Under the pieces are notes generated by a model, which did no database searches, was not told the DNA's origin, and worked only from the letters and a program-made list of their open reading frames with translations. The translations under genes and the position numbers were made by a program. 64,000 bases of DNA, taken from positions 32,001 through 96,000 of the forward strand of contig CM000152.2 in assembly GCA_000004695.1 (NCBI GenBank), given 5' to 3'. Source of the stretch: Dictyostelium discoideum. Taxonomy: Eukaryota. Positions 3,995 through 61,232 of the stretch are shown piece after piece; the first letter of the stretch is position 1; every line of letters begins with the position of its first letter.

Positions 3995-4050
<56 letters not shown>

Positions 4051-4054
<4 letters not shown>

Positions 4055-5113
4055 TCAAGAAGGCACCAGCTAAAACAACTGAAATTGGAAAACCAACTAT
4101 TCGGGTGACCAAAAATAGTGAACCAAATATCGCAATTTTTTTACATCGTCATCATCATCAACATCGTCATCTGGTAGTGATGAATACTCAATGTATTCAT
4201 CATCATCATCATCACCACCATTATCTTCTGGTAATGAAGAATCCTCGATATATTCACCCCATACAACAGTGAAACCGAGTGGTATTTCAAAACTAGCCGC
4301 TCAACATTTAAAGAACCCAGCTCCAGCCACACCAGATTCAAAAGAAGCACCAAGGGTTTCAAGAACATTAAGATCCCAATGTATTAACATCATCCTCTTC
4401 ATCATCTTCATCATCATCGTCATCACCATTATTATCCTCTGGTAGTGAAGAACCCTCAATATATTCATACTATTCAAAAGTAAAACCCAGTGGTGTTTCA
4501 AAACCAGCCGCTCCATATTTAAAGAAACCACAAGAAAATTGGCCAGCTCCAGCAGCGCCAGGTTCAAAGGAAGCACCAAGATTACTAGATCTCCCAATGT
4601 ATTAACATCATCGTCATCATTGTCATCACCATCATCATTATCATCCTCTTTATCCTCTGGATATGAAGAATCCTCAATATATCAGCCTCTAGATCAGCAA
4701 ACCCCAGTGTTGCTTTAAAACCAGCTCCAAATAAAAAGAAGTCAGCACCAGCCCCTCCACAAACAAGGAAATCACCAAGGGTTTCACGATCAAATTCATC
4801 ATTATCATCATCACCATTATCACCATCATCATCACCATCATTACTGTCATTACAGTCATCACCATCATCCCTATCATTACCGTCATCACCAACACCATCA
4901 TCACCATCATCACCATCATCATCACCATCATCACCATCATCACCATCATCATCACCATCATCACCATCATCACTATCATCACCATCATTATCATCTCTAT
5001 CCTCCCCAAGAGCAAAGAGAGCAGCACCAACCCCTCTAAATTCAAAGGAAGCACCAAGAGTTTCAAAACCAAATTCAAATTCTTCCCCAAGAAAGAAAAA
5101 AAGAAAAATTTAG
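4051..5113 (+). other. putative N-terminal tail region of the H3-variant gene: ATG at 4051 (MVKKAPAKTTEIGKPTIRV..) followed by 3-4 tandem ~200-280 bp units, with frame discontinuities between units
   Basis: Each unit encodes SSG(N/S/Y)EE(S/P)SIY..KPSG(I/V)SK.AA..LK.PAPA.P.SKEAPR(V/L)S, separated by (TCA)n Ser/His/Ile-ambiguous runs. Repeat landmarks: ggtaatgaagaatcctcgatatattca at 4229, ggtagtgaagaaccctcaatatattca at 4441, ggatatgaagaatcctcaatatatcag at 4660; ..aaagaagcaccaagggtttca at 4341, 4567, ~4766 and 5046. Unique segments sit in frames 1,0,1,0,2 successively. The last unit (frame 2: SPSSPSSSPSS..SPRAKRAAPTPLNSKEAPRVSKPNSNSSPRKKKRKI*) stops 2 codons before the histone fold in frame 1. 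An (A)60 tract lies immediately upstream of the ATG. Confidence 0.4.
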
Positions 5114-5385
5114 TATTAAGAGAAATTAAGAAGCACCAAAAATCGGATAAGCTTCTTTTACCTCTACTTTCTTTTTCTCGATTGGCCAGAGAAATTTTGG
5201 ATGGTTTCGGCACTAATTTAAGAATCACTCCTGGTTGTCTTATAGCTCTTCAATATGCTTTTGAATCCCACATGACTTTAATATTGGAGAATTGTGGTAT
5301 TATGGCTTTTTATGGAAAAAGAAAAACCATTAATAGAAGTGATATGAGACTTCATTCGAGAATTTGTCCACTCTTTAAAAATTAA
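5107..5385 (+). CDS. histone H3 variant (divergent, CenH3-like) histone-fold domain; as given it is out of frame with the upstream tail by 1 nt at an A7 run (5093-5107)
   Basis: Frame-1 translation NLVLREIKKHQKSDKLLLPLLSFSRLAREILDGFGTNLRITPGCLIALQYAFESHMTLILENCGIMAFYGKRKTINRSDMRLHSRICPLFKN* aligns residue-for-residue with H3 alphaN-alpha3 ([84 protein letters not shown]). ORF-table entry 5182..5385 is part of it, with a TTG pseudo-start. One extra A in the A-run would fuse ..SPRKKKRK to NLVLREIKK. Confidence 0.75.
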   Translation, partial: NLVLREIKKHQKSDKLLLPLLSFSRLAREILDGFGTNLRITPGCLIALQYAFESHMTLILENCGIMAFYGKRKTINRSDMRLHSRICPLFKN

Positions 5386-5702
5386 AATACCCTCAAATAA
5401 TATATAAAAAAAAACATAATAAAAATTTAATTTAAAAAATAAAGTTATTTATATTTATAAAAAATTCCACAACTGTTCCTTTAATTTTTTTTTTTTTTAT
5501 TTTACTGAATTATTAAATAAACAATTAAATAAAAAAAAATAAATAATAAATAATATTAAATAAAAAAAAACTAAAAAAAAACAATAAATTATAGATATAT
5601 TAAAAAAAAAAAAGATTTTAGATAGAAATTAAAAGAAAGTAAGAATTGATAAATATATATTAGAAGCAAAGAGATAATTTTATTTCCTTTTTTTTTTTTT
5701 AT

Positions 5703-7178
<1,476 letters not shown>

Positions 7179-7335: not shown

Positions 7336-7431
7336 ATGATAATTGTAAAACCTTATTGGGTCGATCATCATGGTAAATAGAATTTAAAAAATAAAAAATA
7401 AACAAAAACATAAAATTAGAAAATGTTTTAA

Positions 7432-7471
<40 letters not shown>

Positions 7472-8956
7472 ATGATACAGGAACACCAATATTTTCAATT
7501 GATGTGCACCCTGATGGTAAAAGATTAGCTACATGTGGAGGAGATTCAAATATAAAAATATGGAATATTGAACCAATATCCGATGAGATTATGGAAGATG
7601 ATGCTGATGATACAAGCAACAAAAGAACAACAACACCAACACCAAAATTATTATATTCAATTAATTATGCACATTCAAAATCAATTAACAGTATCAAATG
7701 GTCAAAAGATGGTAGATATTTAGCATCAGTTTCAGATGATAGAGAATGTATAGTTTGGACACTTTCACCATTTCAATCAGCAAATACACCAGAGATTTGG
7801 ACGAGTATAGTTTGCCTTAAAGGTCATAGTGCTGATATCACCGATGTTATTTGGTCAGCAGATAATCAATTTTTAGCTACTTGTAGTTTAGATAAAACAA
7901 TTTTAATTTGGGAAACTACTAAATTTGGTATCTATATATTTTATACTATTTATTTATTTATTTTTATTTATAATTCTTGTTATTCTAACTTTTTTTTTAT
8001 TTATTTTAGGAATTATAAAAAAGTTAGAAAAACAAGAAAAGTTTATAAATGGAATTACATGGGATCCAATGGGTAAATACTTGGTTTCACAATCAGATGG
8101 TTTGATATGTATTTGGAATACTATCAATTGGAATTGTGAAAAAGTAATTAAAGATGTTGTTGGTGGTTTAGATTTAAAATCTTTCTTTTTAAGATCAAGT
8201 TGGACACCAGATTCTAAATATTTTATATCAACTCAAGGTTTTAATAAAAATAATCATTCAGCTATATTAATAGGTAGAGATAATTTTATAAATAATCATT
8301 ATGGTAATCATAATGACAATGGTAATGATGATGGTAATGATGATGGTAATGATGATGGTAATGATGGTAATGATGATGGTAATGATGACACCTTTGAATT
8401 GGTAGGCCATACGGATGTAGTTTCAGTTTCAAAATGTTCTCCAATTATATTTAAAGATAATTCAAATAATTATTTTTCATTAATTTTATTAGGAAGTGTT
8501 GATTCAACATTCTCATTATGGTTATCACCACCTACTACTACTACTACTACTACTACCGATACCAATACCAATAATAGTATTAAGAGATCGCCACCTCAAC
8601 TTATAATGGTTTGTAAAGAAGTTTTTAAAAATACAATACAAGATGTTTCATGGTGTCCTGATGGTTTATCATTTTTTGTTTGTTCAATTGATGGAACTAT
8701 TGCCTATATATCATTGAAACTACATGAAATTAGTGATGGATCACTTCAACCTATCAGTCATAGAGAAAAACAACAATTCTTTAAAAAATCTTATAATTTT
8801 AATTTACCAAATGAAATAGAACTATTTATTCATAAAAGAAATCAAATACCAACTAAACCAATCACTAGAACTACCCAAGAAGTACTATCTACTCAAAAAC
8901 AGTCAACAACTTTAACTGGAAAGAAAAGAATAACACCAGTTACAACTACATATTAA
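7336..8956 (+). CDS. HIRA-like WD40-repeat histone chaperone (HIRA N-terminal beta-propeller homologue, ~476 aa), 3 exons: 7336..7372, 7481..7927, 8010..8956
   Basis: Exon 1 MIIVKPYWVDHH(G) with GTAAAT donor. Exon 2 (acag|) GTPIFSIDVHPDGKRLATCGGDSNIKIWN.. matches the HIRA N-terminus (MKLLKPTWVNHNGKPIFSVDIHPDG..ATGGQDGKIRIWN). The exon 2/3 junction (GTATCT donor at 7928, ..ttttag acceptor at 8008-9) gives ..WETTKFGIIKKLEKQEKFINGITWDPMGKYLVSQSDG, cf. HIRA LTWDPVGKYIASQADD. C-terminal ..GKKRITPVTTTY* resembles the HIRA RRRITP motif. Phases were checked against ORFs 7504..8076 and 7925..8956. Confidence 0.75.
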
Positions 8957-13862: not shown

Positions 13863-14207
13863 TATACACATATAATTTTTATTGAAACTGATACAGGTCA
13901 AACTGAATTTACACCAAGTGGTATAATGTCAATTGATATTATAAATTCGCCATTATTAGGACCACCATTTACTCATTGTAAAAATAATCCATTAAAATCT
14001 TATTTCTTTGGTGATACATCACCAAAGAATAATCCAGAATATTTTTTAAATTTATCATTTCAATTAATTGATTGTTGTAATTTAATAAAACAACAATATC
14101 CAAATATACCAATAATTTTAAATACAAACGGTTGGTTAAAAAGTTTAGGTCTTCATTTAACTCAAGAAATTATAAAATATTTTAAACCAACATCAATAGT
14201 CCAATTA

Positions 14208-30452: not shown

Positions 30453-32198
30453 ATGGAAATGATCAATACAGTAGCAGCATCTTTTTTATTAAAATATTTC
30501 ACCTTATTAATTAAAACACCAGAGAATTTAAAGGATTTCTATCACCAAAATTCAAAAATTACAAGAAGATTCGAGAATGGTAAAGCAAACATCTTAACTA
30601 GCTATGATAATGTATGTAGTTATTTATTTCATTTTACTAATATAGTTTTTTATTATATATATTCCATAAAAAATAATAATAAATTAAAATTTCCATATAT
30701 GAATATTCATATTAACTATTTTTTTTTTTTTATTTCATTTTTTTTTTAAAATTTTTTTTTTTTAATTTTTTTTTTTAAAATACCAAATAAAAAAAAAAAA
30801 AAATAGATTAATGAATTTTTAGTTAATAATTCAGCAAAGTTTGGAGGTAATGCAAATATTTCCTCTATTGATTGTCAACCATTAGGTGAATCGATCTTTA
30901 TGACATGTATTGGTTCAATTGGTTTCGATGGTAATGTTAGAAGATTTTTACAAAGTTTCTATTTAGAAAAGATTCAAGGTTCATTCTTTATCTCTAATGA
31001 TATTTTTGCATTCACTAGCGATGAAGTTTTTACTGTTGCCATTGAACAACCAGATGAAGCTTCAAACATTGAACAAGACTATCAACAACAACAACAACAA
31101 ACTGTAGAGGTTGAATCTACAACCACAACTACTACAACCACAACTGCTATAGTTGCTGCATCTCCAACTGTTGATGCTGAAATTGTTAAACAACCTGAAG
31201 AACCAGTAAAGGTTGAACAACCACCAACACCAAAAGCCTCAAATGTTGAACAAATCATTGAAACTACATCAACAACCACAACAACAACAACTGCTGCCGC
31301 TGCTGCTGTTACTACTATCAATGCATCAACATCAACTCCAACACCAACAGAAACAAAAGCTGTTGAAACCACTAAAAAACCAGAACCAACCACCAACACC
31401 ACCACCAACACCACCACCCCAGCTGAAAAACCAAAAGAAACCACTCCAGCTCCTCATCAAAAGCAAACTTGGGCTCAACTAGTTTTAATTAATAGCACAG
31501 CACAAACAGCATCAGCCTCAGAAGAACCAACTCAATCATCATCTTCATCTTCATCTCAACCATCATCTTCACCATCATCTTCATCATCTTCAGTAAACAA
31601 CAACAGCAACACCACCACCACAACCAACAACACCACCACTACCACAACTGCTAATAAACAAAAAGATGATCATCATTTCTCAAAAGATGGTAACACAGTT
31701 TTCATTAGTTTTAAGAGTTCCAAAGTTGATCAAGCACCAATTAAAGAGGCATTCAATCAATTTGGTGTTGTTTCCAATGTTAGAATTCTTACCGGTTATG
31801 GATTTGTTGAATTTGAAAAACCTGAATCAGTCCAAAATGCTTTAAACTATGCATCAACTCATAGTAATAAAATTAATGTTGCTGGTAATATAATTAAAGT
31901 CGAAGAAAGAAGAGGTGCTTTACCAACTGGAAAACAACAACAGCAATCACCACCATCATCATCATCATCACCTTCATCATCACAACCATTAAAACAACAA
32001 CCACAACAACCATATAAAAGACAACCACAAAATAATGGCGCAATTAATTTAAAATATAATAATCAACAAAATAAACCAAATTTAAATGGTAATAATATTA
32101 ATAATAATAATAATAATAATAACAACAATAATAGTAATAATCAAAATAATTTTAGAAAACCTCAAAAAGTTGATAATAAAAAAGAAGCATCCAAATAA
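30453..32198 (+). CDS. G3BP-like protein (NTF2-like domain + Thr/Pro/acidic linker + RRM), 2 exons: 30453..30611, 30807..32198
   Basis: Exon 1 MEMINTVAASFLLKYFTLLIKTPENLKDFYHQNSKITRRFENG..SYDN with GTATGT donor. Exon 2 INEFLVNN..NVRRFLQSFYLEKIQGSFFISNDIFAF (cf. G3BP1 RRFMQTFVL..NKFYVHNDIFRY). C-terminal RRM ..VFISFKSSKVDQAPIKEAFNQFGVVSNVRILTGYGFVEFEKPESVQNAL... Confidence 0.75.
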
Positions 32199-59595: not shown

Positions 59596-59975
59596 TTAAT
59601 AACGTGGCAAATAAAATGGTTTGATGTACTGATGAAAAGCAATATCTCTATCAGTAATAGTTTTTCTTTTTCCATGAGCAGCCATTATAGCACAATCGGT
59701 CATTATAATATTCATGTAGCATTCAAAAGCAGTACGAAGAGCATGAATAGCACCGACACTCATTCTATAGCTTTTAGGATCGGTCCAAGCCCACAAAATC
59801 TGTCTTTTGATTTCTCTCAAAACTAAATTTCTTCTCTTAATTGGTTTTTGGGGATCATTAAAAGCTGGAGGTGAAACTGTTGGTCATCAGAAGATAATGG
59901 TGATAATGATGATGGTGATAATTGTTGATGGAAAGATCTCTGTAATCTTTTTTGCCTGCCCCTTGTTGGATTCAT
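59596..59975 (-). pseudogene. second divergent histone H3-variant paralogue. It lacks the alpha-N helix and has a 1-nt frame break between the N-tail and the histone fold (380 nt, not a multiple of 3). Probably a pseudogene, or a gene with a homopolymer-length error.
   Basis: ATG 59975 in AAAAATG context gives MNPTRGRQKRLQRSFHQQLSPSSLSPLSSDDQQFHLQL... In the -1 frame, ..SPPAFNDPQKPIKRRNLVLREIKRQILWAWTDPKSYRMSVGAIHALRTAFECYMNIIMTDCAIMAAHGKRKTITDRDIAFHQYIKPFYLPRY* (ORF 59596..59820). It shares the junction motif (K/R)RNLVLREIK with the 5.1-kb H3 variant. Relative to that gene, residues KHQKSDKLLLPLLSFSRLARE are missing, so the two REI repeats are fused. One extra T in tttt (59860-63 on the + strand) would restore a 126-aa ORF. 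Confidence 0.6.
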
Positions 59976-60467
59976 TTTTTATTTTTTTTTTTTTGTAAAT
60001 AAAATTCCTTTATTTATTTTTTTTTTTTATTATTTTTTTTTTTTTTATTATTTTGTTATTTTTTTTATAATTATTATTTTTATAATTATTCCCATTGAAA
60101 TCTAAAATTTGAACTAATGAAAAAAAGAAATGTTTTTCATATTTTTATATCTTTTTTTTTTTTTATATCGAGAAAAAATTAAAAAATGTTTAAATAAAAA
60201 AGATTTTTGGTAGTTTTTTTTTAATGATGTTCCTTGAAATTTTTATTATATTAACACTTGTCATATTATTATTAACACTTGTCATTTTTATTATTTTTTT
60301 TATTTTTATTTTTTTATTTTCTTTTTTTTTTTCCCAATGGGCCAAAAGACTTTAAAAAAAAAAGATAATTAATTTTATTTAAAATAAAAATCAATTATCA
60401 GCTATGATTTTTGAAATTATTTTATTTTAAAATAATATTTTCTACTTATTATTATTTTTTTTAATTG

Positions 60468-60794
60468 ATTATCACCACAATGACTGTTGTCAAACATCAC
60501 TGGTCCAAATCTCTGGTGGATTTAGTGATTGAAATGGCGAAAATGTCCAAACCATACATTTTCTATAATCTGAAACTGTTGCAGCAAATATGTCTACCAT
60601 CTTTTGACCATTTGATACTGTAAATTGATTTTGAATGTGCTCATTTAATTGAATGTATTAATTTTGGTGTTGTTGTTCTTTTGTTACTTATATCATCAGA
60701 ATCATCCTCCATAAGCTCATAAGATATTGGTTCCATATTCTATAATTTTATATTTTAATCTCCACCACATGTAGCTAATCTTTTACCATCAGGG
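60468..60794 (-). pseudogene. relic partial copy of exon 2 of the HIRA-like gene (~85% nt identity to 7505..7845), carrying an in-frame stop and indels
   Basis: Minus strand reads ..YYPDGKRLATCGG.. then ..MEPISYELMEDDSDDISNKRTTTPKLIHSIK* ..SIKWSKDGRHICCNSFRL*KMYGLDIFAISITKSTRDLDQ... Compare HIRA-like EPISDEIMEDDADDTSNKRTTTPTPKLLYSINYAHSKSINSIKWSKDGRYLASVSDDRECIVWTLSPFQSANTPEIWTS. It stands out as a non-AT-rich island in otherwise AT-rich intergenic DNA. Confidence 0.6.
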
Positions 60795-61232
60795 TAGTAA
60801 TAAATAAAAATATAGGTGTTGCTATTTGATTTTATTGAAAATAGAAAAAGATTGGAAAATTATAATTTCATATTTTTGTTAGTTTTTTTTTTTAATTCCA
60901 TTTAGCATTATGATAAACCCAATAAGGTTTTAGAATTATCATTGATATTTGTGAAAAATGATTAAAAAAAAAAAAAAAAAAAAAACATTTCAAATAAATA
61001 TCAAATACACACGTGTGTACCATTAAATAAAATAAATATTTAAAAAAAAAAAAAAAGAAAAAAAAAAAAATAAAAAAAAAAAAGCAAACCAATTTTGATT
61101 TGAGTTGTTTAGAAAATTAAAAATCTACAACAACCGTTAGTTATATAAATATTATTATTTTATTTTTATTTTTATTTTATTTTTATTTTTATTTATTTAC
61201 AAAAGAGTCTATATATATATGAATTATAAAAA

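Follow-up and report, generated by a model that had tools for sequence, protein, structure and literature searches.

The first part of a 64,000-nucleotide (nt) stretch of Dictyostelium discoideum DNA (positions 32,001 to 96,000 of contig CM000152.2, assembly GCA_000004695.1; hereafter the window, whose own numbering is used throughout) contains a histone fold of the H3 type, preceded by about 1 kb of repetitive, tail-like sequence that is interrupted by several changes of reading frame. The question that this locus (4051-5385) raises is whether it represents an H3 variant gene that only appears to be broken, a decaying copy of such a gene, or a repeat-rich pseudogene that became joined to a sound fold. 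The comparisons described below favour, with a probability of roughly 0.85, the view that 4051-5385 is the non-functional allele (a unitary pseudogene), carried by AX4-type genomes, of an H3-like variant gene of the D. discoideum group, and that this gene is a paralog of h3v2 that arose through an old segmental duplication including a HIR1-like gene.

The fold itself is complete and strongly diverged, as an earlier reading of the window made from its sequence alone (hereafter the sequence-only reading) had stated. The frame-0 protein of 5107-5385, NLVLREIKKHQKSDKLLLPLLSFSRLAREILDGFGTNLRITPGCLIALQYAFESHMTLILENCGIMAFYGKRKTINRSDMRLHSRICPLFKN*, matches the Pfam Histone family (PF00125) with E=9.3e-18 and 65 bits, against a cut-off of 26.4, and it aligns with the nucleosomal H3 chains of the Protein Data Bank over 86 residues without gaps (E=6.6e-15, approximately 38% identity). 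The order of elements αN, α1, loop 1 (L1), α2, loop 2 (L2) and α3 is collinear with that of H3, and the fold alignment is free of insertions and deletions (indels). Residues R49, R69, R72, R83, R116, T118, D123, L126 and I130 of H3 are kept, and Q68, F84, T107 and H113 are changed. By these sequence criteria the fold is a member of the H3 histone-fold family; that it is not a canonical H3, as had also been claimed, agrees with its identity of 36-38% to H3 and with a non-canonical tail. A scan of open reading frames (ORFs) and frames found no ATG before α2 in the frame of the fold and no in-frame ATG upstream of it.

Upstream of the fold, about 1 kb of sequence that begins at ATG 4051 (context MVKKAPAKTTEIGKPT) encodes modular repeats rich in Ser, Pro and Lys, and most of what had been described for this tail is borne out. 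The DNA repeat families have a copy spacing of 199-226 nt and, together with the last partial unit (5003-5071), amount to three full units and one partial unit, where three to four had been proposed, and the units are 61% identical at the protein level. TCA/CAT microsatellites occupy the places between units where (TCA)n runs had been noted, a 200-nt array coding for S/P lies at 4796-4993, and the GC content is 33-43% throughout 4100-5350, as opposed to 5-10% in the flanks. The tail is also frame-discontinuous, and no ORF spans it together with the fold: six coding-like segments follow the frame path 0>2>0>2>1>0, with five breaks (Table 1). The ORF that starts at ATG 4051 ends at 4272, after only 73 aa (amino acids), and frame 1 runs on beyond the fifth segment through a basic PRKKKRK motif (5087-5107) to a stop at 5111-5113. 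Two particulars of the earlier description had to be amended. A pure A run does precede the ATG, with a length of approximately 54 nt rather than 60, and the final break, which had been placed inside an A7 run, is located beside it, in the A5 run at 5104-5108. In a further AX4-type assembly, GCA_054883475.1, the poly(A) tract (3997-4050) has 29 nt fewer, and shorter A runs stand at the matching position in two further genomes labelled D. discoideum, ACTFIW (GCA_054859355.1) and ACTFIR. Because the two AX4-type assemblies differ there, the lengths of long A/T tracts, including this one, are either unreliable or truly variable.

The nature of the breaks becomes clear from the orthologous loci of other genomes, which were reached via the nearby PARG protein (further loci were reached via the FKBP cluster). 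Five genomes were compared in all: the window (AX4-type), ACTFIW, ACTFIR, and ACTFIY and ACTFIZ, the last two labelled 'D. cf. discoideum'. In ACTFIW the locus is one intact single-exon ORF of 567 aa (MVKKSPAKKTEIGKPT ... PRKKKRKNLVLREIKK ... ICPLFRN; Pfam Histone E=2.6e-18), and tail and fold are thus one gene, as had been supposed. The intact tail comprises approximately 475 residues and is built of modules of about 70 residues that contain poly-S, SSG-x-EE-S-I-Y, KPSGVSKPAA, KKPAPA and SKEAPRVSR; it is 33% Ser, 17% Pro and 9% Lys, has 31 S/T-P sites and is net basic, and an RKKKRK motif stands immediately before αN. A single ORF from the start codon through the fold, present in this ortholog, is absent from the window, which carries five frameshifts. 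The DNA alignment of the two alleles has 13 indels, eight of them in frame (in the window these have removed, among other things, a complete unit of 204 nt and 102 nt of the microsatellite) and five frameshifting: the window lacks 31 nt after 4123, 2 nt after 4372, 10 nt after 4584 and 1 nt after 4680, and has A5 in place of A6 at 5104-5108. At this last site, the '+5' given by the aligner was read directly from the alignment as an in-frame insertion of 6 and a deletion of 1. Taken modulo 3, the five deletions reproduce the frame path of the window exactly, and when the window is read in the ACTFIW frame its 435 alignable codons include no stop. At the lesion sites that were checked, ACTFIR and the ACTFIZ remnant keep the intact reading, for example PRV..RSPNVLT in one frame. 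The sequence-only reading had left a choice between a long-tailed variant with assembly indels and a decaying duplicated-tail pseudogene fused to an intact fold; the comparison combines the two, in that a long-tailed variant gene does exist and this copy of it has decayed, through indels that are genuine and not products of assembly.

Table 1. Positions of the features of the locus, its paralog and their neighbours in the window, and state of both H3-like loci in the other genomes.
Feature	Position	Strand	Description
Poly(A) tract	3997..4050	+	Pure A, just before the start codon; length variable or uncertain between assemblies
Segment 1	4051..4123	+	Frame 0; conserved start MVKKAPAKTTEIGKPTIRVTKNSE; ends at lesion 1 (31-nt deletion)
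Segment 2	4124..4372	+	Frame 2; short half-unit and repeat unit 1 (SSGNEESSIY..KPSGISK..LKNPAPATPDSKEAPRVSRTLRS); ends at lesion 2 (TCTC>TC)
Segment 3	4373..4584	+	Frame 0; repeat unit 2 (PNVLTSSS..SSGSEEPSIY..KPSGVSKPAAPYLKKP..SKEAPR); ends at lesion 3 (10-nt deletion)
Segment 4	4585..4680	+	Frame 2; beginning of repeat unit 3 (RSPNVLTSSS..SSGYEESSIY); ends at lesion 4 (1-nt deletion)
Segment 5	4681..5106	+	Frame 1; remainder of unit 3, S/P microsatellite 4796-4993, final partial unit 5003-5071
Lesion 5	5104..5108	+	A5 run, A6 in the intact allele; 1-nt deletion that puts the fold out of the tail frame
H3-type histone fold	5107..5385	+	Frame 0; αN to α3, 92 codons and stop
HIR1/CAF1B-type WD40 β-propeller gene	7336..8956	+	476 aa; introns 7373-7480 and 7928-8009
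h3v2 (DDB_G0277979) remnant	59596..59975	-	Short ORF frameshifted relative to the fold; annotated upstream exon starts at 60285
Decayed HIR1-like copy	60499..60942	-	Exon 1 and 5' part of exon 2, immediately upstream of h3v2
Locus in ACTFIR			Nonsense substitutions (two), 68-nt deletion, 1-nt deletion, unit loss; genome close to ACTFIW (fold dS 0.035)
Locus in ACTFIY ('cf. discoideum')			Fold remnant only, 5-residue α1 deletion, behind a (GATGTT)n array
Locus in ACTFIZ ('cf. discoideum')			Tail remnant only, with stops; fold gone
h3v2 in ACTFIR			Frameshift and stop in α1
h3v2 in ACTFIY			Stop and truncated fold
h3v2 in ACTFIZ			Frameshifts and stop

The AX4-type allele is not the only one that has been lost, since the locus is disrupted in four of the five genomes and intact only in ACTFIW. 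The lesions differ in each lineage (Table 1), which implies that the intact state is ancestral and that the gene was inactivated repeatedly. In the 'cf. discoideum' genomes simple repeats replace the lost parts, a (GATGTT)n array standing for the tail (L005 17690-17840) and a TTTATTTA-like array occupying the place of the fold (L008, approximately 13990-14180).

The closest relative of the locus lies in the same window. A second H3-like fold, at 59596-59830 on the minus strand, is that of h3v2, whose published primers match the window exactly at 60285 and 59596. Fold identity between the group formed by the locus and the H3v2 group is 45-52%, as compared with 35-38% to H3 or to human CENP-A, and the nearest relative of the fold is h3v2, at 49-50% as against 36-38% for H3 or CENP-A; the intact ACTFIW proteins of 567 and 285 aa align across both tail and fold (BLASTP E=3e-34). 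In AX4-type sequence, h3v2 is itself a remnant: a frameshift separates a short ORF, MNPTRGRQKR...SSDDQQ, from ...SPPAFNDPQKPIKRRNLVLREIKRQ, the tail repeats have collapsed, and 57 nt (19 codons, covering the end of αN and α1) are deleted. Its ACTFIW ortholog is an intact single-exon protein of 285 aa (L009 6807-7664) that has a complete fold and a tail of approximately 190 residues with KKPAP-x-VSP-x-KEPAP repeats. In AX4 the annotated h3v2 gene contains an intron and its product has 96 aa (Dubin et al., 2010, PMC2995078). A fusion of H3v2 with green fluorescent protein (GFP-H3v2) was reported to be non-nuclear, for which the remnant state of the AX4 gene may offer an explanation.

The surroundings of the two loci are related as well. 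About 2 kb downstream of the H3-like pseudogene, the HIR1-like gene encodes a 476-aa protein that matches PF24105 with 121 bits (cut-off 80.5) and yeast HIR1 with 1e-36. The decayed copy beside h3v2, in which MIILKPYWVYHN is the remnant of exon 1, has 75% and 70% amino acid identity to this gene and contains stops and a frameshift; it is found in ACTFIW and ACTFIR too. The presence of HIR1-like sequence beside both H3-like loci indicates that both derive from an old segmental duplication in which the HIR1-like gene was copied as well. Taken together, the nearest fold, the common tail modules, the basic junction and the genomic context place the window locus in an H3v2-type subfamily of H3-like proteins.

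Any account of the locus as a dead allele has to face the notion that the gene is intact in the organism and that the five breaks are sequencing or assembly errors in DNA rich in repeats and homopolymers. Single bases do account for two of the five breaks (in the short run of A at 5104-5108 and in ATA(A)T), and the two AX4-type assemblies disagree on the lengths of long intergenic homopolymers. The notion is nevertheless barely credible, given that the other three breaks are deletions of 31, 10 and 2 nt and that the chromosome-scale GCA_054883475.1 (CM142509.1) is identical to the window, base for base, across 4051-5385, so that the five breaks stand in two independent AX4-type sequences. Within 9.7 kb the differences between these sequences come down to one base and the lengths of three intergenic homopolymers (29 A, 11 T and 3 T), near window 3997, 7265, 7434 and 9232. 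Neighbouring long ORFs are all intact; four proteins of the window, namely PARG, DDB_G0295839 and the spliced products of racI and FKBP, match D. discoideum AX4 entries at 100% identity, and between AX4-type sequence and ACTFIW, PARG and a 280-aa neighbour have in-frame indels only, with a synonymous divergence (dS) of about 0.10 and a ratio of non-synonymous to synonymous divergence (dN/dS) of 0.07-0.10. The fold-containing protein is, moreover, absent from a collection of 5.8 billion proteins that includes those of AX4, a word-indexed search of which with the fold found nothing, and no such gene is recorded by Dubin et al. (2010, PMC2995078), who name only h3v1 and h3v2 as extra H3-like genes of AX4. 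The multi-nucleotide size of three of the lesions (2-31 nt), the agreement of two assemblies and the intact neighbours thus show that these are not assembly errors. A different objection accepts the breaks and holds that the locus is still a functional protein gene by means of tail introns, programmed frameshifting or translation of the fold alone. An automatic gene caller did propose a spliced 250-aa model at 4191-5113, and the fold is well preserved (dN/dS 0.30); this model, however, presupposes atypical introns that total approximately 170 nt and, ending at the stop codon of frame 1, does not reach the fold, and the GC profile, in which an AT-rich, intron-like stretch was looked for inside the locus, has none like the introns of Dictyostelium. 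Five separate shifts in three directions would also be required, the fold frame offers no start before α2, and the other genomes lose the same locus in unrelated ways, all of which makes such expression highly improbable. Some considerations do weigh against the pseudogene reading. Residual expression at the locus, as a truncated peptide, an RNA or the 250-aa tail-only product, may be possible. The fold dN/dS between the window and ACTFIW, 0.30 on the small counts of 6 synonymous and 7 non-synonymous changes, is not the value of about 1 of an old pseudogene and suggests that inactivation was recent. In addition, it is the integrity of the ACTFIW ORF that suggests a functional product, and the state of the AX4 reference is deduced from two sequences of AX4 type together with the gene list of Dubin et al. 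(2010).

The functional status of ACTFIW bears on a more radical proposal, namely that the whole family (the locus and h3v2) is non-functional everywhere and that the ACTFIW ORFs have simply not yet been hit. It would accommodate a tail dN/dS of 0.82 (again on small counts) and an h3v2 fold dN/dS of 0.59, amino acid changes in the fold that are equal in number on the ACTFIW and AX4 branches (polarised by eye), and the fact that TCA-rich low-complexity sequence is open in several frames by composition alone. It is unlikely all the same, because ORFs of 567 and 285 codons with zero lesions contrast with what the same divergence (dS about 0.10) produced in AX4, namely five frameshifts in the window locus and gross deletions in h3v2, and with its close relative ACTFIR (fold dS 0.035), which has at least four lesions at one locus and two at the other. 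This difference between the lesion-free ORFs of ACTFIW and the several lesions per locus gained by AX4 and ACTFIR argues that selection acted until recently in the ACTFIW lineage. The values of 0.30 for the fold and 0.82 for the tail, subject to the same small counts, fit a constrained fold with a fast-evolving tail that would have been inactivated recently in AX4, and the joint fate of the locus and h3v2, which in each genome are intact together or broken together, may point to a role that they share or in which they are coupled, though five genomes are too few for more than a hint. The sequence-only reading had called the gene CenH3-like, and a second centromeric histone is indeed a reading with some attractions: the long tail has no alignable counterpart, the α1 motif FSRLAREI is that of human CENP-A, and there is a weak Pfam CENP-T_C match, below the cut-off. 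The fold also has S for Q68, I/V for F84 and C for T107, and the loss of Q68 and the replacement of F84 and T107 are reportedly among the CenH3 criteria of Malik and Henikoff. The same three changes and the FSRLAREI motif, however, are present in H3v2-type proteins, a non-centromeric lineage that contains the nearest relative of the locus. An insertion in L1 relative to H3 was looked for in the fold alignment and none was found, L1 being a weak criterion in this clade because that of the known Dictyostelium CenH3 (DdCenH3) is reported to be short; the fold is no more similar to CENP-A (35-36% identity) than to H3 (36-38%), and inactivation in four of five genomes would be surprising for a centromeric histone. 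DdCenH3 is, besides, a different gene, h3v1 (DDB_G0291185), which encodes 619 aa with other termini and an L1 that is not lengthened, and which has been described as the only centromere-specific histone of D. discoideum (Dubin et al., 2010, PMC2995078). A centromeric role for the intact gene is therefore very unlikely, and this label for the locus is not supported.

Having weighed these alternatives, the pseudogene reading has predictable consequences for the products of the two kinds of allele. In an AX4-type genome, translation from ATG 4051 would halt after 73 codons, and the fold, without a start codon of its own, would most likely yield no histone product, a 73-residue peptide being the most that could be expected. 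Its intact counterpart, to judge by sequence features, would enter the nucleus through the RKKKRK motif, pair with H4 through a fold in which the relevant residues are retained, and expose a long, disordered and probably phosphorylated tail. As to the origin of that tail, the units had been regarded as stretched copies of the H3 tail. BLASTP similarity to H3 begins only at residue 45, which speaks against this idea, while profile alignments carry the last pre-fold unit, a member of the tail repeat family, into H3 residues 15-44 or thereabouts, which speaks for it; that the modules arose when the proximal part of the H3 tail was duplicated is consequently plausible but weakly supported.

Several other features of the region deserve mention. 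For the same assembly, GCA_054883475.1, the automatic gene caller that proposed the 250-aa tail-only product also gives a 494-aa model on the minus strand (window 5250-7178), with an extra exon antisense over the fold, and both models look like artefacts. An antisense ORF of 179 aa (4689-5228, minus strand) spans the S/P microsatellite and the start of the fold; similar antisense ORFs occur in the ACTFIW-side sequence of the locus, and this one results from the low complexity of the sequence and does not argue for a gene. On the same strand, at 5703-7178, a 491-aa ORF without any Pfam match contains very long poly-Asn and poly-Ser tracts and an (ATT/AAT)n array of about 170 nt at 5820-5990, and its orthologs range from 347 to 497 aa between isolates. 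A neighbouring gene of 896 aa was found on CM142509.1 of GCA_054883475.1. With regard to the genomes themselves, the orthologs of PARG and DDB_G0295839 have a dS of about 0.10 between AX4-type sequence and ACTFIW/ACTFIR, all of which are labelled D. discoideum, and the dS of either of these to 'D. cf. discoideum' is 0.10-0.14, about equal to the within-species figure; these values suggest that deep lineages exist inside the named species.

The distribution of the family beyond this group appears to be narrow. In an exhaustive scan with HMMER, which covered 1.84 billion representatives, the best 150 matches to the fold were only ordinary H3s or H3 fusions, at approximately 41-49% identity, and the best single-copy match (P0140) is on a 6-kb contig. 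Gene order around PARG is not conserved in D. purpureum, and a tblastn search of the 20 kb examined there gave no copy. Descriptions of the locus, of either intact form (567 aa and 285 aa) or of a linkage with a HIR1-like gene were sought in the searchable literature and none was found, nor was anything relevant on an H3v3, on an H3 pseudogene or on the new 'cf. discoideum' assemblies.

These results add an undescribed H3-like locus to the histone inventory of D. discoideum, and they imply that the reference strain is a poor guide to the H3v2-type family, both of whose loci are remnants in AX4 and full-length in a wild isolate. Two automatic gene models of the region, the tail-only one of 250 aa and the minus-strand one extended to about 5250, can be flagged as artefacts. 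The intact and the independently broken alleles constitute a natural presence/absence system for the role of a modular tail of approximately 475 residues on an H3 fold. A wider proposal, tentative and rather doubtful as it stands, is that in some wild lineages of D. discoideum the long-tailed H3-like proteins form a working family of two members (the 567-aa protein and the 285-aa H3v2). This family would have originated together with a HIR1-like chaperone gene, would have a conditionally dispensable role in chromatin (for instance, in the sexual cycle or in genetic conflict), and would have disappeared, both members together, on separate occasions in the lineage of the laboratory reference and in no fewer than three others. 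If this were true, the textbook H3v2 of AX4 would be a relic, and the non-nuclear GFP-H3v2 would thereby be explained.

It remains to compare the locus with the systems that it resembles. With the canonical and replacement H3s (1kx3, 5mlu) it shares a fold that is collinear and gapless from αN to α3, at 36-38% identity, and that retains the main residues of DNA contact and dimerisation; it differs from them in the lack of a canonical N-terminal tail, in approximately 60% of the residues of the fold (including Q68, F84, T107, H113 and the C-terminal RRIRGERA), and in the broken reading frame of the AX4-type genome. The likeness to DdCenH3 consists of a Dictyostelium H3 fold, a very long N-terminal extension (619 aa in all) and a non-lengthened L1. 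The termini of h3v1, however, compared as encoded by its primers, do not match the locus, h3v1 is not among the 150 best matches to the fold, and its role is described as centromere-specific, whereas the window locus is dispensable. The resemblance to h3v2 is much closer: the two have in common the K/R-rich junction ...K(R/K)RNLV(L/F)REIK, the derived residues AFE(S/C), C107, IMA and GKRKTI, an S/P/K modular tail in ACTFIW, a place beside HIR1-like sequence within one 64-kb window, and a state that is decayed in AX4 and intact in ACTFIW. They are nonetheless separate loci, 55 kb apart and on opposite strands; the H3v2 group has a 2-residue insertion in L1 that the window locus lacks, and the tail of the window locus ortholog is twice as long (567 as opposed to 285 aa for the proteins), with extra poly-S and SSG-EE-S-I-Y modules.

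Outside Dictyostelium, the nearest parallel is found in lineage-specific H3 variants and their pseudogenes, such as the generative-cell H3s of plants (Talbert et al., 2012, PMC3380720), which are likewise divergent, taxonomically restricted paralogs of varying functionality that evolve fast and have no clear ortholog outside a narrow clade. The window locus departs from these variants in a tail made of tandem modules of approximately 70 residues, in a presence or loss that is paired with that of its sister paralog when isolates of a single named species are compared, and in its linkage to a HIR1-like gene.

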